Shown here: one piece after another, positions 44,541 through 54,826 of the stretch
Numbering within the stretch: the first letter of the stretch is position 1
Layout of the letters: each line of letters starts with the position of its first letter
NCBI GenBank assembly: GCA_045568995.1
Contig: JBJKZY010000046.1
Location: 1,575-65,574 of the forward strand
DNA length: 64,000 nt
DNA from: Fidelibacterota bacterium
GTDB taxonomy: Bacteria > Fidelibacterota > Marinisomatia > Marinisomatales > UBA1611
Direction of reading: 5' to 3'
Position numbers and translations under genes: made by a program
The notes under the pieces: generated by a model
What the model saw: the letters and a program-made list of their open reading frames with translations, nothing else
Databases searched by the model: none
What the model was told of the DNA's origin: nothing

Positions 44541-45614
44541 TTAGACAGCTAAAGTCTTACCAGTTGATCCTAAATCAGAAAATGCTTCATCTAATCGATC
44601 CACCATAGAAACCTCTCCTGCTCTAAGCCATACTCTCGGATCATATTTCTTTTTATATGGCGTGCCATCATCAGGATCGATCTGATATTTAAATGCTTTT
44701 GAATTTTCTTCTACATACTTGCCTACAGCATTAGAAAAAGCGAACTGAGTATCTGTATCAATATTCATTTTAAAAACTCCATAAGATAAAGCTTCAGAAA
44801 TTTTTGCTTTATCAGATCCAGATCCACCATGGAAAACAAGATCCAGTGGTTTTTCCTTGGTATTGCAAGTACTCTGAACAAGCTCTTGTGCGTTTTTTAA
44901 AATTTCTGGAGTTAACTTAACATTCCCTGGTTTATAAACACCATGAACGTTGCCAAATGAAGCAGCTAAACTAAAATGACCAATCGGAGATAGAAGCTTA
45001 TAGGCTCTCAAACAATCCTCTGGTTGAGTATATAGCAAAGGATTATCAGCTCCAATATCATCATCCGATCCAACTCCATCTTCCTCACCTCCAGTTACTC
45101 CAAGCTCTATTTCTAAACTCATACCAATTGGAGACATCCTTTTTAATAAACGTTCGCACTCTGATAAATTAAATTCAATATCTTCTGCAGATAAATCTAA
45201 CATATGGGAGGAAAAAAGAGGACTCCCTGTTTTTTTATAGTGTTCTTCGCTAAATCCAACAAGTGCCTCTACCCAGGGGATAAGTGCTTTATTTGCATGA
45301 TCCGTATGGATTACAACACAGACTCCATATTTTTCTGCTAGTAAATGTATGTGCTGGGCTGCAGAAACGGTTCCAAGAACTTTTGCCTCAAATGCATCGG
45401 TTAAGCTCTTACCTGCAAAAAATTGCCCCCCGCTATTTGAAAACTGGATTATAACATCTGATTTGTTTTTCGCAGCAGATTCCATAACAGCATTTAGCGA
45501 GTTTGTTCCAACTACATTAACAGCTGGAAGTGCATATCCACCCTCTTTAGCAGCCTTTAATAAAACTTTATAATCTTCTCCAGTTACCACACCAGGTTTA
45601 AGTGAATATGACAT
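44541..45614 (-). CDS. fba: Fructose-bisphosphate aldolase, class II (type A)
   Basis: VVIHTDHA, LVFHGGSGS, FKMNIDTDTQ. Start placed at MSYSLKPGVVTGEDY (45614; AGGA lies 6 nt upstream); the track's TTG start at 45641 overlaps the pfp stop. Confidence 0.9.
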   Translation of the reverse strand: MSYSLKPGVVTGEDYKVLLKAAKEGGYALPAVNVVGTNSLNAVMESAAKNKSDVIIQFSNSGGQFFAGKSLTDAFEAKVLGTVSAAQHIHLLAEKYGVCVVIHTDHANKALIPWVEALVGFSEEHYKKTGSPLFSSHMLDLSAEDIEFNLSECERLLKRMSPIGMSLEIELGVTGGEEDGVGSDDDIGADNPLLYTQPEDCLRAYKLLSPIGHFSLAASFGNVHGVYKPGNVKLTPEILKNAQELVQSTCNTKEKPLDLVFHGGSGSDKAKISEALSYGVFKMNIDTDTQFAFSNAVGKYVEENSKAFKYQIDPDDGTPYKKKYDPRVWLRAGEVSMVDRLDEAFSDLGSTGKTLAV

Positions 45615-45627
45615 ATTCATTCCTTTA

Positions 45628-46818
45628 TTATTGTTGACCAATATTCTTAGTCATTGTTTGAAACCAATCCAACGAAAGGTCAAAAGGTTTTCCACCTTTT
45701 ATTCTTTCAAATTCTATTAACCTTAACTGATTGTCGTTATCTTCATCTAAACCAGCAAGTCCACTTTTTCCATTCAGCCCTTGTTCGGCAGCAAAAAATG
45801 CAGAACGCTTAATTAATTCAAGATCCTGAGCATTTGCTTTAGCAGATCGGGCAAAATAACCACTTTTTTGCACAAGCGTTTTTTCAGCTTTTAGTGCAGA
45901 TGAAAACTGTTTTGCAAACCACTGCCCGGGATTTATTTCATCTAAACGAACATGGCCAAAAGCGTCCCTGGGAACTTTCTCACCCTTCTCTTCCATTTCT
46001 CTAACAATCGCATCTTGCCCCGCACCTTCACTCAAAAAAATATTAATATTATCTTTTTTGTCCATAAGACTTCGTAAACGATCTACTTCATGTTGAAAAT
46101 TAAAATCCTGCTCCGGGATATAGATTGCATCTATATCCCATTTTGACTTTTCCACCATTAATTCTGGTAAAAATACTTTTTTATTTAACCTTTCTCGATA
46201 ATCTTTGGCAGTTTTTGCAGTTAACCATCCACAGTGTCTTCCCATCACCTCATGAATAATCAGTTGTCTGGTGCTAGTTGTATTTTCATTCACAATATTT
46301 TCAAAAAATATTGCTCCTTGCTCTGCTGCAGTCCAGGCTCCTAAAGTTTGAGAAACTGGAAACACATCATTATCCACAGTTTTTGGAAGACCTACGACTG
46401 TTAATTCATATCCATTTTTTTCTAGGTAGAAGGAGAGTTGTGCAGCCATTGTATTGGTGTCATCTCCCCCAATTGTATGTAAAATATTTATTTTATCTTT
46501 TGTTAGCTGGTTCGCAGCCACTTCTAAAGGATCTAAACCTTCTTTCACATATCCTTTTTTCACACAATCTTCAACATTCGTGAGCTTTACTCTACTATTT
46601 CCAATAGGTGAGCCTCCATAATCATATAATACCTCGAAATTTATTTTTACTGATTCCGGAAATACGATGGTTTCGCCTAGAAGTAGACCTCGATAACCGT
46701 TGAGATAACCAACGAGTTCAGCATCTGGATATAAATCATTATATTTATGAATAAGAGATCCTATCGATGCGGATAAACATGGTGCTATGCCACCAGCGGT
46801 AAGAAATGCTATTTTCAT
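45628..46818 (-). CDS. pfp: Pyrophosphate-dependent 6-phosphofructokinase
   Basis: 396 aa; TIGGDDTN (Asp rather than the Gly of ATP-PFK GGDGS) and LPKTVDNDV (Lys rather than Gly), MGRHCGWL: residues diagnostic of PPi specificity. Confidence 0.8.
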   Translation of the reverse strand: MKIAFLTAGGIAPCLSASIGSLIHKYNDLYPDAELVGYLNGYRGLLLGETIVFPESVKINFEVLYDYGGSPIGNSRVKLTNVEDCVKKGYVKEGLDPLEVAANQLTKDKINILHTIGGDDTNTMAAQLSFYLEKNGYELTVVGLPKTVDNDVFPVSQTLGAWTAAEQGAIFFENIVNENTTSTRQLIIHEVMGRHCGWLTAKTAKDYRERLNKKVFLPELMVEKSKWDIDAIYIPEQDFNFQHEVDRLRSLMDKKDNINIFLSEGAGQDAIVREMEEKGEKVPRDAFGHVRLDEINPGQWFAKQFSSALKAEKTLVQKSGYFARSAKANAQDLELIKRSAFFAAEQGLNGKSGLAGLDEDNDNQLRLIEFERIKGGKPFDLSLDWFQTMTKNIGQQ

Positions 46819-46931: not shown

Positions 46932-48875
46932 ATGACAAAAATACTCTGGAGACCCAAAAATATTCACAGCACCCATATGATGAAATTCATGGATCGTATA
47001 AATAATGTTTATGATTTACATCTCAAGTCTTATCAAGACCTACACAATTGGTCCATTAAAAATATCCCTGATTTTTGGAAAGAGGTTTGGAATCAATCAG
47101 AAATAATTCATTCAAATACATACACAGATATAGTTGACGACGCGAATAAAATACCTGGTGCTAAATGGTTTTCAGGATCACGATTAAATTTCGCTGAAAA
47201 TTTATTACGCTATCGCAATGATCATATTGCAATCTATGCTAAAGCTGAGAACCTTCCATTGAGAAGTATTACATACAATGAACTCTTTAACAAGGTAGAA
47301 GCACTTGCACATTCATTGAAATCTTTAGGCATAAAAGAAGGTGATCGTGTTGCTGGCTTTATCCCTAATATTCCTGAAGCTGTGATCGCAATGCTTGCGA
47401 CAAGTGCAATCGGAGCCATCTGGAGTTCTGCCTCTCCGGATTTTGGTGTAAAGGGAGTATTAGACAGGTTCAAACAAATAGAACCAAAAATAGTTTTTGC
47501 ATCTGATGGCTATTACTATAATGGTAAAGAATTTGACTCTTTAGAAAAATTAAATAATATATTAAAAGATCTTCCTTCAGTTGAAAAAACTATAATCATA
47601 AATCAAATAAATAATCAAAAAAGTACTGGGCTTTCTTTTGATTTTGTTAATTTTGATGAATTTCTAAGTAAATCTCCAGACAAACTTCATTTTACTCAAC
47701 TTCCTTTTGATCATCCACTTTATATAATGTACTCTTCAGGGACAACCGGACTTCCAAAATCTATTGTCCACTCTTCAGGAGGTACACTTATCCAGCATTG
47801 GAAAGAATTACGCCTGCATTGCAATTTAAGCAAAGAGGATACGATTTTTTACTTTACAACATGTGGTTGGATGATGTGGAATTGGCTTATTTCTGCTTTG
47901 TCTATTGGATCCTCAATCGTTTTATTTGATGGTGGTCCCTTTTATCCAGATAATAAAAAATTATGGGAGATAGCAGAACAATTAAAAATTACTATTTTTG
48001 GAACAAGCGCAAAATATATTGACTCCTGTAAAGAATCTGGATTAAAACCAAAAGACGTATTCAATCTTTCAAAGCTAAAGACTATCCTTTCCACGGGATC
48101 TCCATTGTCAAACGAAAATTTTAGATATGTTTATGAAAATATAAAATCTAATGTCTTGTTAGGATCAATTTCAGGAGGTACAGATATTATATCTTGCTTT
48201 GCCTTGGCAAATCCAATTTTACCTGTTGAAGAAGGCGAATTACAATCTATTGGGCTAGGAATGGATGTTCATGCTTTTGATGAAAATGGGCAACAATTTC
48301 TCAATCAGAAAGGAGAATTGGTTTGCACTTCAATATTTCCTTCAATGCCAATTTATTTCTGGAACGATCCTGATCACCAAAAATATCAGAATGCTTATTT
48401 CAATAAATTTGAAAAAGTTTGGTATCATGGGGATTATATCAGAATATCAAAAAATGGTAGTATGAAAATTTATGGCAGAAGCGATGCCACACTTAATCCT
48501 GGAGGAGTCAGAATTGGGACAGCAGAAATTTATCGAGTCATTGAAAAAATAGATGGGATATCAGATAGCCTTGTTGTTGGCCAATCATGGAAAGGGGATC
48601 AACGAATTATACTATTTTTAAAAATGAATAAAAATCATGTTTTTAATAAAAGAATAGTAGAAGAAGTAAAACAAATGATCAAAAACAGCTGTTCACCTAG
48701 ACATATCCCCGAGATCATATTAGAAACAAACGGAATACCATATACGATGAATGGAAAAAAAATAGAAATAGCTGTAAAAGAGATTATTGATGGCAAAAAA
48801 GTTGATAATATTGATTCTATTCAGAACCCTGAAGTACTTAACTATTACAAAAATATTTCTGAGCTAAGTGCTTAA
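46932..48875 (+). CDS. aacS: Acetoacetyl-CoA synthetase
   Basis: 647 aa; N-terminal LWRPKN..KFM..SYQDLHNWSI..DFWKEVW typical of AacS; AMP-binding motif YSSGTTGLPKSIVHS. Confidence 0.8.
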   Translation: MTKILWRPKNIHSTHMMKFMDRINNVYDLHLKSYQDLHNWSIKNIPDFWKEVWNQSEIIHSNTYTDIVDDANKIPGAKWFSGSRLNFAENLLRYRNDHIAIYAKAENLPLRSITYNELFNKVEALAHSLKSLGIKEGDRVAGFIPNIPEAVIAMLATSAIGAIWSSASPDFGVKGVLDRFKQIEPKIVFASDGYYYNGKEFDSLEKLNNILKDLPSVEKTIIINQINNQKSTGLSFDFVNFDEFLSKSPDKLHFTQLPFDHPLYIMYSSGTTGLPKSIVHSSGGTLIQHWKELRLHCNLSKEDTIFYFTTCGWMMWNWLISALSIGSSIVLFDGGPFYPDNKKLWEIAEQLKITIFGTSAKYIDSCKESGLKPKDVFNLSKLKTILSTGSPLSNENFRYVYENIKSNVLLGSISGGTDIISCFALANPILPVEEGELQSIGLGMDVHAFDENGQQFLNQKGELVCTSIFPSMPIYFWNDPDHQKYQNAYFNKFEKVWYHGDYIRISKNGSMKIYGRSDATLNPGGVRIGTAEIYRVIEKIDGISDSLVVGQSWKGDQRIILFLKMNKNHVFNKRIVEEVKQMIKNSCSPRHIPEIILETNGIPYTMNGKKIEIAVKEIIDGKKVDNIDSIQNPEVLNYYKNISELSA

Positions 48876-49873
48876 TCTAAACTATATAATTTACCTAATA
48901 AATCTGCCACTCTGTTTGAATAACCCCACTCATTATCATACCAATTAAGTGTCTTTACAAAATTACCATCGATCACGCGTGTAAAGGGTGCATCGAAAAT
49001 AGATGAATGTGGGTTTCCAATAATATCTGTTGAAACTACAGGCATGGTCGAATATTCCAAAACATTTTTTAAAGTCCCAGATTCTGCAGAGCTGTATACA
49101 GCATCATTTATCTGATCTACTGTGACATCTTTTTCTAGACGAACGTTGAAGTCTACTACAGATCCATCTGGTACAGGAACACGCATTGCAATGCCATCAA
49201 GCTTCCCATTTAATTCAGGTAAAACTTTTCCAACAGCTCTTGCAGCACCTGTTGTTGTTGGTATAACATTCTCAGCAGCAGCTCTACTTCTTCTCCAATC
49301 GGAGTGAGGAACATCAGCAAGTCTTTGGTCATTGGTATATGCATGAATAGTATTGATCACGCCAAGTTCAATTCCAAATGCATCATTTAAAACTTTTGCC
49401 ATAGGAGCTAAACAATTTGTAGTACAGGAAGCATTCGACACAATTTTATGCTCAGGCAATAAACCATCATCATTAACACCTAAAACAACTGTGTAGTCTA
49501 TTTCATCTTTTGCGGGAACTGTAAGAACTACTCTTTTCGCTCCAGCCTTGAGATGATTCTCAAGCTGCGATTTTTGACGAAAAATTCCTGTTGATTCAAT
49601 AACTATATCTACTCCCATATCTCCCCATGGCAGAGAAGCTGGATCTCGCTCCGCTAAGAGCTTAACAGATTGACTATTTGTTTTTAATATATCCCCATCG
49701 AGGGTCACCTCTCCTGGGAATCGACCCATTACTGTATCATATTTAAGTAGATAGGTGAGAGCCTCTTTATCAAAAATATCATTGATTGCGACAAGATTAA
49801 CATCTTCTTTAGAGTCCAAAATTCGAAAAACTGAACGTCCTATTCTTCCAAAACCATTTATAGCTATATTCAT
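48872..49873 (-). CDS. gap: Glyceraldehyde-3-phosphate dehydrogenase, canonical type I
   Basis: 333 aa; INGFGRIGR, SNASCTTNCLAP (catalytic Cys), TIHAYTNDQ, RRSRAAAENVIP, TGAARAVGKVLPEL, MRVPVP, WYDNEWGYS. Confidence 0.95.
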   Translation of the reverse strand: MNIAINGFGRIGRSVFRILDSKEDVNLVAINDIFDKEALTYLLKYDTVMGRFPGEVTLDGDILKTNSQSVKLLAERDPASLPWGDMGVDIVIESTGIFRQKSQLENHLKAGAKRVVLTVPAKDEIDYTVVLGVNDDGLLPEHKIVSNASCTTNCLAPMAKVLNDAFGIELGVINTIHAYTNDQRLADVPHSDWRRSRAAAENVIPTTTGAARAVGKVLPELNGKLDGIAMRVPVPDGSVVDFNVRLEKDVTVDQINDAVYSSAESGTLKNVLEYSTMPVVSTDIIGNPHSSIFDAPFTRVIDGNFVKTLNWYDNEWGYSNRVADLLGKLYSLD

Positions 49874-50889
49874 GATGTCTCCTCTAATTTTGCATATGCA
49901 TCCACTACTTCAAGAATTCTTTTTGAAAATCCCCACCCATTATCATACCAGCAAAGTGTTTTTAATAAAGCGTCCTTAGTAATCATCGTTGCTTTTTCAT
50001 CAAAAACCATCGTCTCCTCTCTACCACTAACATCACTTGAGACTATTGGATCAGAAGTATAACCAACAATTCCATTTAATTTATTTTCCGAGAATTCTTT
50101 AATGGCTTTGTTTGCCTGTTCAACTGTTGGTGTTCGCTCTAGCTCTGTAGTTAAATCCACACAAGAACCATTTGGAACAGGCACATTAAAAGCAATGCCA
50201 TCAATCTTATCTTTATACTCAGGCATAATTTTCTCCACAAGGTCTGGAGACTGCGTACTATTTGGGATAATATTTTCAACAGCTGATCTACTTCTTCTTA
50301 AATCTGCCCCGGCTACATCTGCCAATGGCTGATCTGCAGTGTAAGCATGAACCGTGGTCATCATTGCCCTCTTTAATCCAAATGCCTCATCAAGCATTTT
50401 AACCATAAGAGCAAGCACCTGGGTCGTAGAGGATGTAGTAGAAATAATTTTATCCGACAATAAAATACTTGATTCATTTAAACCTGGAATCACATACCTA
50501 TCAATTTCATTTTTTGGATTCCTTGTAAGGAAAACTCTCTTTGCTCCTGATTCAAGATGGGGTACTAGTTTTTCTCGAGTTAAAAATCTACCCGTAGCAT
50601 CAATCACTACATCTGCCTGCAAGGCATCCCAAGGAATAGTACCAGGATCTCCGCCACTAATCACCCTTACACGCTGATCTTTTACCTTTAGATAGTTTCC
50701 ATCTAATTCAACAGGATCTTCCATAGCACCATGGATAGAATCTCTTGCTAATAAATATTGAAGGGTTTCTGCGGATCCAAAGTCACTTATTGCTACAAAA
50801 TTATAATTTGGGTTATCGTATCCTAGCCTAAAAAGATTTCTTCCAATTCTTCCAAAACCATACAATGCTATGTTTATTTTTTTTGTCAT
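49870..50889 (-). CDS. GAPDH paralog lacking the catalytic cysteine
   Basis: 339 aa; YGFGRIGR retained, but SNASCTTNCLAP is replaced by STTSSTTQVLAL (Cys->Ser, codon TCT at 50428..50430). MRVP becomes FNVP (Arg->Asn) and STGAAKAVGKV becomes STQSPDLVEKI. TVHAYTADQ and RRSRSAVENIIP are retained. ATGA overlap with canonical gap. Confidence 0.85.
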   Translation of the reverse strand: MTKKINIALYGFGRIGRNLFRLGYDNPNYNFVAISDFGSAETLQYLLARDSIHGAMEDPVELDGNYLKVKDQRVRVISGGDPGTIPWDALQADVVIDATGRFLTREKLVPHLESGAKRVFLTRNPKNEIDRYVIPGLNESSILLSDKIISTTSSTTQVLALMVKMLDEAFGLKRAMMTTVHAYTADQPLADVAGADLRRSRSAVENIIPNSTQSPDLVEKIMPEYKDKIDGIAFNVPVPNGSCVDLTTELERTPTVEQANKAIKEFSENKLNGIVGYTSDPIVSSDVSGREETMVFDEKATMITKDALLKTLCWYDNGWGFSKRILEVVDAYAKLEETS

Positions 50890-51009
50890 ACCGAAATTTC
50901 TTTTAATTATTAAAAAATGAAGAGCAAATATTACTAATTATATCTACACAAAAATAGGTTCAAATACTTAAAATGGATATTATAACAGATCTATTCAAAA
51001 TATCATTTT

Positions 51010-51873
51010 TTAATTAACCCATTTCTCATGTTTAACCCAGTCTATTTCCATTTCCCATCCACCATCTGTGTAGTCATTACTAATTTTAGCATAATTTAAA
51101 ATAGCAAACATAGGTTCACGTAGTTTTTCAGCAATACCAATATTTCTACCAACTTCTATACCATTTAAACGAAAGACTAAATCGTTTTCTGTCCATTCAA
51201 CAGAATATTCATTATACTCAGTTAATTTTGATGATAGATTTACCTGATTAGTCCACCAATCTCCTCCATCATCACATGTACCTAATGGCAAAATACTACG
51301 ACCAACATATCCAGTTTGGCCTCCGTGTTGGCCATGATGCTCCATTATATCAATTTCACCAGAACCAGGTAATGGCCAGCAAATGTTTTCATCTGGCTCT
51401 TGGATAGGAGGCTCATTGTTACGGGCACCTAATATCCACCAAGCGGGGAACATCCCAACTTCACCTGCATTATTCAGTTTTATCTTTGCTGTCCAACGCC
51501 CTCCAGTAAATTCTTGAAGATTCTTAGATGCTAAGCGTCCCGAAACATAGCGTGTATCAGGATGATACTCTCCAAATTTAGAAACATTGCTTGAGCAAGG
51601 CCTTTCATGTTCTAATTTGATAAGTCTTAACTTTAAAGAACCATTGCTAACTTCACGGGTTTTGTATTCGCCTTCCCTTACATAGCATTGATCTTCGTTA
51701 TTTACCCAAAGTAATTGATCTTGCCAATTTTTATCATTAAAAAATTCAAACTCATCTATAAAGTCAATTACCCATCCTTTTTTTTTAATATTTTGTTTAG
51801 ATTTTTCTGTACATGAAAAAAAAGCCATACCTAAAGCTAATAAAGTAATTATTATGAAATTTACATTTTGCAT
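51010..51873 (-). CDS. Glycoside hydrolase family 16 (laminarinase/beta-glucanase-like) lipoprotein
   Basis: 287 aa; signal plus Cys (GMAFFSC); catalytic GEIDIMEH (ExDxxE). Confidence 0.85.
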   Translation of the reverse strand: MQNVNFIIITLLALGMAFFSCTEKSKQNIKKKGWVIDFIDEFEFFNDKNWQDQLLWVNNEDQCYVREGEYKTREVSNGSLKLRLIKLEHERPCSSNVSKFGEYHPDTRYVSGRLASKNLQEFTGGRWTAKIKLNNAGEVGMFPAWWILGARNNEPPIQEPDENICWPLPGSGEIDIMEHHGQHGGQTGYVGRSILPLGTCDDGGDWWTNQVNLSSKLTEYNEYSVEWTENDLVFRLNGIEVGRNIGIAEKLREPMFAILNYAKISNDYTDGGWEMEIDWVKHEKWVN

Positions 51874-52560: not shown

Positions 52561-53337
52561 CTAGTCTAAGACTTGCTCAATAAATTTCAACATTTTTTTT
52601 TGCTTGGATAGATAACCTAATCTTGTTTCGACATTTAGATATCTAACATTTCTTCTTAACGCTTCCCATGATAGACTTCCATCATCATTTTCTGGTAATT
52701 TATTTTGTAATACTACATTAAAAGGGCCAGAACTTAATTTTTCATAATCATTTGCATCTGTGCATATAATAAAGTCCCTTGGGTTTTCAGTTTTTTTAAT
52801 GGATACCTTTTGACTTTTACTTTTTTCTTTGTGAACGTTATAACCACGAAAATTATTATGCAATGAAATGAGGTAACCAGATTCTGCAGGCATAAGGATA
52901 TCCAAGAAATCCTCTCTTTCTCTATCTAAGATATCCAAAGCCTTTTTTAAGTTGCCTGGAGGCCAATCTGGTTTAAATTTTCTCAAGGCATGGTAAGAAC
53001 CTTTTCTAGAAAAAATTCTATTTGGGTCTATTATGGTTGATTGGAAAGGTACCTCACGAGTTTCACTATCAATAAAAAATGCTATCCCTTGATATTTTTT
53101 TATATGGTACTCCAAAGCCATCTTAGCAGTTTGTTCATCTCCATGCAACCATATGTAACGATTAGATGAATTACCATTTGAAATAATATCAAATTTTGCT
53201 TTCGCAAAAGAAATATAGGAATGTGGAAAAGAAACATTCTTAGTTTCTCCTGCAAAAACAAAAGAGAGAATATGTATGATTATAGTTTTATTTAAGAAGG
53301 ATTGCCTTCTGAGTATCATAAGATTGCTTTGATTCAA
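52561..53337 (-). CDS. Hypothetical protein with M14-carboxypeptidase-like metal motifs (tentative)
   Basis: 258 aa; WLHGDEQTA (HxxE), IIDPNRIFS (resembles DxNRNF), LISLHNN (third His). Order and spacing resemble a minimal M14/MpaA-like fold. The 5' end overlaps the upstream gene. Confidence 0.35.
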   Translation of the reverse strand: MNQSNLMILRRQSFLNKTIIIHILSFVFAGETKNVSFPHSYISFAKAKFDIISNGNSSNRYIWLHGDEQTAKMALEYHIKKYQGIAFFIDSETREVPFQSTIIDPNRIFSRKGSYHALRKFKPDWPPGNLKKALDILDREREDFLDILMPAESGYLISLHNNFRGYNVHKEKSKSQKVSIKKTENPRDFIICTDANDYEKLSSGPFNVVLQNKLPENDDGSLSWEALRRNVRYLNVETRLGYLSKQKKMLKFIEQVLD

Positions 53338-54826
53338 CTTTTATAAAATAAATTCCGCTCGGTAATTTTCGAGCATCCCATATGAAAACATGGTTCCCAA
53401 TTTCAAGAAATGTATTCCATTTTTCAACCAATTTACCCTGCAAATCATGAACTGTTAAATCAATAAAACTAGGATCATTAATAGAAATTGAAATATTAGT
53501 AATAGGGTTAAATGGATTAGGATAATTAGGACTCAAATGAAAGCTACTCAGTGGAATTACTGGATCAATTTTAGTAAAATCAATATCATGACAACTATCT
53601 AAATCCCAAGCATTCAAAGGGTATACTTCAAATGAGTCTGGAGGGCATTCTTCAAAATAATTATGATGTGCATAAATTTGGTCCAAAATCAATGAATCTG
53701 CTGGAAAATTTTTATACAGATCCTCTCCTATATCTGCATAATTATCATAGAAAATATTTCCAATTGTGACAGAACCTCCAAGGATAGGCCAAGAAAGAGA
53801 GTCCACATAAATACCACCACCGAAATAACAGATACAATCACAATCCCCTTGGACAGTATTATCAAAAATTTCATTTCCAAATATATGAGGATAAGATGTG
53901 CCTATAATTGCAATTCCGCCTCCGCCTCCACCACAGGAACCTGCGATGTTGTTATGTATAATATTACGATCAATGGTAGGACTAGAATCTTCAATCAATA
54001 TTCCTCCACCATAATTTTGGCTATATCCATTTTGAATTTCAAACCCTAACAATATAGATGATTGATCCTGCCCATTATTTATTGTGACAACGCTACCTTG
54101 CCCTCCTCCATCCAGCACTACAGGTCCTGAAGTATTATCTTCATATCCACTATAAGGAAGAGCAACCAAAGAAATATTTTTATCTAAAAAATTAATATGT
54201 TCATAATAAACCCCTGGGTCTACTAATATTATATCACCATCGCTTGCATTCTCTATTGCATTTTGAATTACTATAAAATCTTCACTCACTCTCAAAACAT
54301 TAGGCCCATTATTTGCTCTAAAGTCTAGAATCAAATTTATGAAATAACTATAATCCTCAGGATTTTCTGGATCCAAAGTGGTTATGTTAAATTGATAAAT
54401 CAATTCGCCTTGTCTATCCAAAAAATATGTACTTCGCTGTACTGCTTCATAATCTTCCCATACAGGATAGCCTTCTTCTTCTATATCCTCTACCCATGGT
54501 AATATATTTTGATCAATCATGCCATCCAGACTACTATTATATGCATCTTTTCCTACCCCAACCATATTCACATCTTCTATGCCAATGGCAAGTAAGTCAT
54601 TATAAACTAGGTTTAGAAAATCGAACCGACTTCTACAAGCGCTTCAATATTCATGTCCAAAAAATATAATACTGATTTCACCTAAAAAATCGTCTGGCCC
54701 AATTACCTGTCCATAGAATTCGGAATTTGGATTTAAGTCTTCTAATTCAAAGTTGCTTTGAGAAAAAAGAGATTTAACGAAAAAAAATATAAGGAGGGGG
54801 AAAAACTTACTCATCCTGATCTTCAT
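53288..54826 (-). CDS. Candidate selenoprotein: signal peptide + thioredoxin-fold U-x-x-C domain + right-handed beta-helix + T9SS-type C-terminal sorting domain (in-frame TGA at 54644..54646)
   Basis: Track ORFs 54644..54826 and 53288..54571 are in the same frame. My translation across the gap reads ..GEISIIFFGHEY-TGA-SACRSRFDFLNLVYNDLLAIGIEDVNMVGVGKDAY.. with no other stop. Beta-helix repeats (NNIAGSCGGGGGGIAI, YFGGGIYV). C-terminus YPNPFNPITNISISI..SGIYFIKVES..QKAILLK. The start may be 54814 (MSKFFPLL). Confidence 0.6.
54614..54635 (-). promoter_or_regulatory. SECIS-like hairpin 9 nt downstream of the in-frame UGA
   Basis: RNA UAGAAGUCGGUUCGAUUUUCUA: stem U-A, A-U, G-C, A-U, A-U, G.U, (bulged U), U-A, C-G; apical loop GGUUC beginning 16 nt after the UGA. 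Confidence 0.45.

Follow-up and report, generated by a model that had tools for sequence, protein, structure and literature searches.

The window analysed here, a 64,000-nucleotide (nt) stretch of contig JBJKZY010000046.1 from a Fidelibacterota bacterium, carries on its minus strand two adjacent open reading frames of the type I glyceraldehyde-3-phosphate dehydrogenase (GAPDH) fold, arranged head to tail. The upstream gene, gapX (49870..50889), codes for a paralogue of 339 amino acids (aa) without the catalytic cysteine. Its downstream partner gapA (48872..49873) codes for a canonical type I phosphorylating GAPDH of 333 aa. Both proteins feature the Gp_dh_N and Gp_dh_C domains (Pfam E = 3.4e-29 and 3e-50 for GapX) and align over 333 residues with one gap at 43% identity (BLASTP, E = 4e-99), close to the 40% estimated in a first-pass annotation that had recognised the tandem of full-length homologues and its overlap. 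In the overlap, the stop of gapX (TGA) and the start of gapA (ATG) share the sequence ATGA at 49870..49873 (minus strand; tcat on the plus strand). A Shine-Dalgarno-like GAGGAG (49879..49884, minus strand), read from the sequence, lies within the final gapX codons, 5 nt 5' of the gapA ATG.

Phosphorylating GAPDHs require the thiolate of Cys149, which forms the thiohemiacetal and thioacyl intermediates, while Arg231 and the Thr208-Gly209 loop serve the substrate and inorganic phosphate sites. The GapX active-site region reads STTSSTTQVLAL and has Ser154 at the Cys149 position, encoded by TCT at 50428..50430 (minus strand; aga on the plus strand). Further changes are found in FNVPVP, where the phosphate-binding Arg231 is replaced by Asn235 (AAT, 50185..50187, minus strand), in STQSPD, where Gly209 is replaced by Gln213, and in WYDNGWG, where the invariant Glu314 is replaced by Gly318 (GGG, 49936..49938, minus strand). 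The Asn and Gly are signatures of a whole family described below. GapX retains GFGRIGR, Asp32, TVHAYT (His176, Thr179), Thr208, RRSR and Asn313. The motifs of GapA are canonical (SNASCTTNCLAP, TIHAYT with His176, TTGAA, MRVPVP and WYDNEWG), and its catalytic residues are invariant across 72 partner gapA copies. The motifs quoted in the first-pass annotation, including STQSPDLVEKI and the TCT codon, are all present at the locus; its list of changes was correct as far as it went and overlooked Glu314Gly, with the strand left unstated. As it also argued, a protein without Cys149 has no thiohemiacetal route: thiol-less GapX is unable to run the canonical thioacyl mechanism. Missing Cys149 and Arg231, GapX is predicted from its sequence to lack NAD-dependent oxidative phosphorylation of glyceraldehyde 3-phosphate.

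The assignment of GapX by curated models agrees with this departure. Against TIGR01534, the curated type I GAPDH model with a cut-off of 367.2 bits, GapX scores 313.1 bits, below the cut-off, and GapA 428.8 bits, above it. GapX thus falls outside type I GAPDH in Cys149, Arg231, the inorganic phosphate loop and the curated score, and agrees with it in domain architecture and fold and in the His176 general base. Assignment to erythrose-4-phosphate dehydrogenase (Epd) was rejected: NF010058 and TIGR01532 give 253.9 and 244.7 bits for cut-offs of 539 and 530.55 bits, and the protein has no Cys. Likewise rejected was the ArsJ-associated GAPDH (NF033735; 259.2 bits, cut-off 450 bits); the neighbours of gapX are gapA and genes for an acyl-CoA synthetase-like protein, a phosphofructokinase (PFK), an aldolase and a GH16-like protein, with no arsJ beside it. 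Scores against every other curated GAPDH equivalog lie far under the cut-off. No curated NCBIfam model distinguishes GapX-type proteins from true GAPDH, and their sources, as far as seen, label them 'type I glyceraldehyde-3-phosphate dehydrogenase' or 'glyceraldehyde 3-phosphate dehydrogenase NAD-binding domain-containing protein'.

One substitution, TGT to TCT, suffices to give Ser at position 149, so that a pseudogene in decay, a mistake in assembly or base calling, or a lesion peculiar to one strain has to be considered. This explanation is refuted by the conservation of the gene. The reading frame is intact, and in the database an identical protein represents a cluster of 169 sequences. 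Among the 120 nearest clusters (77-100% identity; from marine metagenomes, with one named Fidelibacterota) there is none with Cys149, the region matching the pattern STTSSTTQVL in 119 of them and reading, by eye, STTYSTTQVL in the remaining one. When one genome was scanned for each GTDB species, gapX orthologues, 50-81% identical to the window GapX, were found in about 65 species of Marinimicrobia/Neomarinimicrobiota/Fidelibacterota. They share the Cys-less state, with Ser, Ala or Thr at Cys149 and [FLMI]-N-V-P at Arg231, and each is followed by a canonical gap gene (SNASCTTNCL, xRVP).

Selection acts on both genes. In 30 closely related species pairs, the ratio of nonsynonymous to synonymous substitution rates (dN/dS, Nei-Gojobori) has a median of 0.059 (0.024-0.225) for gapX and 0.051 (0.022-0.111) for gapA. 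Since these values are nearly equal, purifying selection on gapX is about as strong as on gapA; amino acid change is ~1.55x faster in GapX. The low dN/dS of ~0.06 and the many conserved substitutions that co-occur with the loss of Cys149 also stand against a lesion or an error. The gapX substitutions are real, old and held by selection, neither base-call errors nor a strain lesion, which bears out the first-pass view of true divergence and answers its proposed check for purifying selection. With an active paralogue in the same genome, and catalytic residues missing under purifying selection, GapX has two of the features expected of a partner paralogue of the pseudoenzyme or 'prozyme' type.

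The window GapX belongs to the Marinimicrobia branch of a multi-phylum paralogue family, a branch in which the thiol was lost long ago. Members of the family are found also in Acidimicrobiia, where Cys is replaced by Asn, and in Acidobacteriota, Thermoanaerobaculia and Eisenbacteria. Cys149 is absent in 20 of the 142 sequences that were aligned out of the 150 closest representatives, Ser, Ala, Val, Asn, Pro or Gly taking its place; Val, Ile, Pro or Gly stands there in branches besides those of Marinimicrobia and Acidimicrobiia. Acidimicrobiia-type members have Asn149 and Gly314 in 116/116, Asn231 in 115/116 and Asn209 in 113/116. A profile built from diverse non-Marinimicrobia members was used to collect the best 116 full-length matches, from Acidobacteriota, Thermoanaerobaculia and Eisenbacteria. 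Cys149 is retained in 89 of these (SNASCTAHCA and similar), which nevertheless carry the other changes: Asn231 is present in 109/116 and Gly314 in 112/116, with a residue other than Gly at 209. Over 233 family members, position 231 is Asn in 218, position 314 is Gly in 221 and position 176 is His in 228, while position 149 is Cys in 91, Ser in 65, Asn in 49, Ala in 12, Val in 10 and another residue in 6.

As judged from these alignments, the family is marked by Arg231Asn, Glu314Gly and the replacement of Gly209, and the loss of Cys is not a defining trait. Since many members keep Cys149, its loss is secondary in the GapX family. The emphasis that the first-pass annotation had placed on the missing Cys is therefore displaced toward residues 231, 314 and 209. 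Of the two residues whose conservation it had proposed to examine, Asn231 holds throughout the family; Ser149 holds in the closest clusters and not family-wide. Orthologues bearing Cys, which it would have taken as a sign of a lesion or pseudogene, occur only at great evolutionary distance and indicate recurrent secondary loss.

Eight derived residues (gapA numbering: Asn14, Gly79, Pro121, Asn231, Ala297, Met299, Thr308 and Gly315) are common to the Marinimicrobia, the Cys-retaining and the other Cys-less subgroups and are rare in canonical GAPDH, from which a single origin of the GapX family is argued. The window GapX carries the full family signature (Asn231, Gly314, non-Gly209, Asn14, Gly79, Pro121, Ala297 and Met299). 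Among 276 aligned GAPDH-type sequences, the signature set was defined as those without both Arg231 and Glu314. In all 100 neighbour-joining (NJ) bootstraps the best-matching split is within 1-3 taxa of this set. A first tree gave one GapX clade. A larger NJ tree places the clade of partner GapAs between Marinimicrobia GapX and the remaining GapX, on very short branches; in this tree the partner-GapA clade joins the GapX sequences, not other canonical GAPDHs. Strict monophyly of GapX is thus supported by the shared derived residues and not settled by the NJ trees, and the grouping of GapX with its partner GapAs would be consistent with a tandem duplication that took place long ago and was passed on as one block.

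Parsimony on the NJ tree counts 13 changes of Cys state overall, of which roughly at least 10 are losses within the family. The loss in Marinimicrobia is one old event common to the whole phylum-level clade. The reconstruction indicates that Cys149 was lost repeatedly and independently, probably after Arg231Asn and Glu314Gly. Cys149 and His176 are kept together with Asn231, Gly314 and non-Gly209 in the gapX genes of loci L075 (3995-5023), L084 (5001-6029), L085 (5001-6023) and L086/L087 (5001-6005); Cys-retaining GapX proteins of this Acidobacteriota/Eisenbacteria type may be intermediates or still-active variants. At the other extreme, three loci of Actinomycetota/Acidobacteria type (L072, 127-1143; L073, 153-1175; L083, 2988-3995) combine Cys149 to Asn with His176 to Lys (TTVKAMS), and this replacement of His176 is a further step of active-site decay. 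A separate curiosity is P0123, a metagenomic protein of 2,089 aa with four GAPDH-like domains, the catalytic Cys being present in all. Some 470 residues between its second and third domains resemble phosphoglycerate kinase (by eye only) and its amino terminus resembles a signal peptide; it would be an unusual multi-GAPDH fusion.

The genome scan yielded 77 loci with both genes complete, and in all 77 gapX immediately precedes a canonical gap read from the same strand. The junction, measured from the gapX stop to the gapA start, is -4 nt (an NTGA overlap) at 46 loci, -1 nt at 17, 0 to +3 nt at 12, and +8 or +17 nt at 2; 75 of the 77 thus fall between a 4-nt overlap and a 3-nt gap. A GGAG-like motif is found within the 3' end of gapX at most of these loci. 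Outside Marinimicrobia the same order occurs in Eisenbacteria, in Polarisedimenticolaceae and other Acidobacteriota, in Thermoanaerobaculia and in Acidimicrobiia/Actinomycetota. The order and the tight junction are kept in these other phyla with X proteins only ~37-50% identical to the window GapX. Cys-retaining GapX members are also encoded immediately upstream of a canonical gap (L084-L087), the Eisenbacteria loci L086 and L087 having a looser spacing of 77-107 nt.

The pair is obligate and usually self-contained. No conserved third gene accompanies it in other phyla, where the neighbours vary by lineage, the exception being a PFK-family gene in Marinimicrobia and at one Acidobacteriota-type locus; neither pgk nor tpi lies downstream of the pair in other phyla. 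At the unrelated locus L085 the PFK-family gene abuts a Cys-retaining gapX-gapA pair. Three candidates for a natural X-A fusion were set aside. P0125 is an internal duplication and P0138 a chimera. In P0129 the GapX carboxyl terminus runs in frame into the GapA amino terminus through a linker of ~10 residues; it is not counted, as its contig is frameshifted at the 3' end and the fusion is a possible artefact. Searches of the full-text literature (subscription-only articles being outside their scope) found no bacterial Cys-less or inactive GAPDH paralogue, as the first-pass annotation had supposed, and brought up only a trypanosome GAPDH-like protein and general pseudoenzyme papers. GapX represents a real, conserved family of degenerate GAPDH paralogues, obligatorily paired with gap and apparently undescribed.

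It could be supposed that GapX is a stand-alone protein, a homotetramer or other form, with a non-glycolytic role as sensor or buffer of NAD(H) or triose phosphate or as a moonlighting binder, and that it is co-expressed with GapA only because both answer the same metabolic state. Its NAD-binding motifs and its pocket of His176, Ser148, Thr150 and Thr179 are conserved, as such a role would have it, and coupling is looser in some lineages (77-107 nt at L086/L087, +8 and +17 nt elsewhere). There is also the trypanosome flagellar GAPDH-like protein, a homologue that is inactive and has a location and a role of its own (PMC4106842). The X-then-A overlap or abutment, however, is kept across phyla at the low X identity given above, tighter than co-regulation demands, and residues of the S-loop are held in common specifically with the partner GapA clade. 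Stand-alone GapX is on balance a rather unlikely explanation.

The pattern of residues kept and lost was defined in 72 X/A pairs at 128 sites that are invariant in the partner GapAs. GapX keeps the same residue at 60 of them, including GFGRIGR, Arg17, Asp32, Thr-Gly96, Ser148, Thr150, His176, Thr179, Gln182, Arg194, Arg197 and Asn313, as well as the motifs ENxIP, VPxxxGS, VSxD and WxDNxWG. At three sites it is fixed on another residue (Ala211Pro, Arg231Asn and Glu314Gly), Asn231 being present in 71/72 and Gly314 in 72/72 of the paired X copies. The other 65 sites are variable. They comprise Cys149 and its neighbours 147, 148, 153, 154 and 157 (Ser148 being listed also among the kept sites), Gly209 (entropy 3.3 bits), the 209-215 phosphate loop, the S-A-P motif region and the tip of the S-loop, Pro188-His190.

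In GAPDH the S-loop makes up the tetramer core and lies next to the NAD site of the adjoining subunit. It is the best-conserved region of GapX, with a mean entropy of 0.67 bits compared to 1.06-1.44 in the other six regions. Fourteen residues set the partner GapAs apart, being at least 90% conserved among them and rare in the remaining canonical GAPDHs, and five belong to the S-loop (184, 186, 188, 193 and 201); GapX has in common with its partners Ala186 and Glu201 in the loop and Thr308 outside it. The AlphaFold2 monomer of GapX (pLDDT 87, pTM 0.87) has low confidence only in the S-loop, residues 183-206, which in this model would be consistent with a segment ordered by neighbouring subunits. 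Foldseek aligns the model to many GAPDH structures with a TM of 0.89-0.90. The top Protein Data Bank (PDB) matches by profile and fold are engineered Cys149Ala and Cys149Ser forms of the Bacillus stearothermophilus GAPDH; no structure of a natural GapX-family member was found, PDB scores declining smoothly from this GAPDH and its Cys149 mutants.

The kept residues raise the question of another chemistry. GapX might still catalyse a reaction with NAD and His176 but no thiol, by direct hydride transfer to or from an activated acyl, another carbonyl or an alcohol substrate, its substrate or product being linked to the GapA reaction. His176, Asn313, Ser148, Thr150, Thr179 and the NAD motifs are present even in Cys-less lineages, the change of 231 and 314 to specific, conserved Asn and Gly is unlike random decay, and Cys-less clades of the GapDH superfamily stay active (PMC12041015). 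Positions 147, 148, 149, 153 and 154, the 209-215 loop and, outside Marinimicrobia, Arg195 vary widely between clades, however, and a substrate pocket that all would share is not evident. The two phosphate sites have decayed, and no conserved third gene points to a new pathway. Such an enzyme is improbable.

The explanation preferred here, to which about an even chance is given, is that GapX, itself non-catalytic and probably able to bind NAD(H), is built with GapA into mixed tetramers and tunes how cooperative, how responsive to NAD(H) or how stable the enzyme is. GapX and GapA would be translated from one mRNA by termination-reinitiation at the ATGA overlap. GapX, which keeps the type I GAPDH fold and most likely still binds NAD(H), would then join GapA in mixed tetramers, for instance A2X2, as the most likely form of assembly. 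There it would supply its S-loop and subunit interfaces, with no thioacyl chemistry, and its presence would alter the glycolytic enzyme in one or other of these properties. Binding of NAD(H) is suggested by the retained motifs. Gene order and translational coupling across phyla, the kept NAD and S-loop elements and the S-loop residues in common with the partner point indirectly to the heteromer. Position 149 accepts many residues (Ser, Ala, Thr, Asn, Val and others) and therefore plays no chemical part, and the features that GapX retains are consistent with a dinucleotide-binding subunit that packs in the tetramer.

Several observations weigh against the partner-subunit explanation. Adjacency and coupling would also suit two separate proteins that need only co-expression, and a reliable natural X-A fusion protein was not found among the candidates. 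That X and A diverge in step (r = 0.88), which would speak for an obligate pair, is largely an effect of shared phylogeny. The interface roles of the S-loop and the DPIVSSD block are presumed from GAPDH structures, not from computed contacts. Selection still acts on the pocket, since His176, Asn231, Ser148, Thr150 and Thr179 are kept and a purely structural subunit would not need them. The 89 of 116 non-Marinimicrobia profile matches that keep Cys149 mean that ancestral GapX may have been, or GapX there may still be, an enzyme. With pocket, Asn231 and Gly314 under selection and relatives that keep Cys149, GapX may have a role in ligand sensing or a residual or novel chemistry. The two lines meet in a further proposal, for which the probability is again low: GapX would not be dead, and its kept pocket, together with Asn231 and Gly314, would transfer hydride without a thiol or bind one particular metabolite inside a mixed GapA-GapX tetramer.

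In the window, directly beyond gapA, lies a convergent gene for an acyl/acetoacetyl-CoA-synthetase-like protein with ACAS_N and AMP-binding domains (46932..48875, plus strand); the stop codons of the two genes overlap in TTAA at 48872-48875, and no terminator-like hairpin is found between them. Loci L001-L003 have the same convergent arrangement. Past this gene come a PFK-family gene (45628..46818, minus strand) and a gene for class II fructose-bisphosphate aldolase (44541..45641, minus strand), which overlap each other and form with the gapX-gapA pair a small glycolytic neighbourhood. Upstream of gapX are genes for a weak GH16-like glycoside hydrolase (51010-51873, minus strand) and for a beta-helix protein with a Por/type IX secretion system (T9SS) carboxyl-terminal sorting domain (53288-54571, minus strand), which fit a polysaccharide-degrading lifestyle of the FCB group. 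The best-scoring candidate promoter, a weak sigma-70-like site (ATGATA, 16 nt, TG-TATAAT) at 50979..51006 (minus strand), lies ~90 nt upstream of gapX. The scan for promoters and terminators around the pair is uninformative because site counts are no higher than in shuffled controls.

Few enzymes have been studied as much as GAPDH, and the bacterial form is regarded as a homotetramer whose four subunits are all active. A thiol-less, subunit-like gene is nevertheless coupled to gap in about 65 species of a globally abundant marine phylum (SAR406). If mixed tetramers form, they would provide a bacterial case of a prozyme-type dead paralogue as partner in central metabolism and a natural experiment on half-of-the-sites reactivity and NAD cooperativity. 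If GapX is active within such tetramers, several phyla including SAR406 would run glycolysis with an unrecognised two-subunit GAPDH endowed with an additional activity or a site for sensing. The losses of Cys149 that follow Arg231Asn and Glu314Gly are a clear case of stepwise pseudoenzyme evolution. As databases name GapX a type I GAPDH, metabolic reconstructions count a GAPDH that is almost certainly unable to do the reaction.

The closest known relative is type I GAPDH itself (GapA, EC 1.2.1.12; Geobacillus stearothermophilus 1GD1). GapX resembles it in the two-domain fold (~40-45% identity), the NAD-binding GxGxxG, Asp32, Asn313, His176, Thr179 and the S-loop. It differs in lacking Cys149, Arg231, Gly209 and Glu314, in scoring below the curated cut-off and in having a true GapA always encoded immediately downstream. 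The engineered Cys149Ser and Cys149Ala GAPDHs of B. stearothermophilus (PDB 1NQ5/1NQO and 1NPT/1NQA), reportedly made for trapping unreacted substrate complexes, carry the same replacement of the nucleophile by Ser or Ala. They are laboratory products with Arg231 and the inorganic phosphate site intact, whereas GapX is natural, selected and has additional family-specific substitutions. The chloroplast A2B2 GAPDH (GapA/GapB) combines two paralogues in one tetramer, with a regulatory division of labour between them. Each of its subunits is catalytically active, and a carboxyl-terminal extension provides the regulation. GapX has no such extension and its catalytic residues are missing. PDB entries 7q53-7q57, related to the chloroplast enzyme, are among the structure matches listed.

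Loss of catalytic residues is known also in more distant branches of the superfamily. USG-1, in an inactive Asd-like branch, is bacterial, has lost catalytic residues and has no known function (PMC12041015). It belongs to an aspartate-semialdehyde dehydrogenase-like subfamily and, unlike GapX, is not paired with an active paralogue in the manner of gapX-gapA. A 2025 review describes Cys-less enzymes that remain active, namely CAR, alpha-aminoadipate reductases and bacterial malonyl-CoA reductase (PMC12041015). Dead paralogues that serve as partner subunits, or prozymes, have precedents in the trypanosomatid AdoMetDC (PMC6221367) and deoxyhypusine synthase (PMC3663545). They share the logic proposed for GapX, a dead paralogue kept by selection beside an active enzyme. 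Prozyme heteromers are eukaryotic and biochemically demonstrated, while the GapX heteromer is proposed from gene coupling and sequence.

Among the nearest precedents is also the trypanosomatid flagellar protein TbGAPDHL, a GAPDH homologue in which the nucleophilic Cys is replaced by Pro and flanking residues are lost, while the cofactor site may be retained (PMC4106842). A free-living relative keeps a competent version of this protein (PMC4106842), in parallel with the Cys-retaining GapX members. TbGAPDHL is eukaryotic, part of the paraflagellar rod and neither encoded beside an active GAPDH nor coupled to one, unlike GapX. It is also poorly conserved among its orthologues (PMC4106842), whereas GapX is under strong purifying selection.

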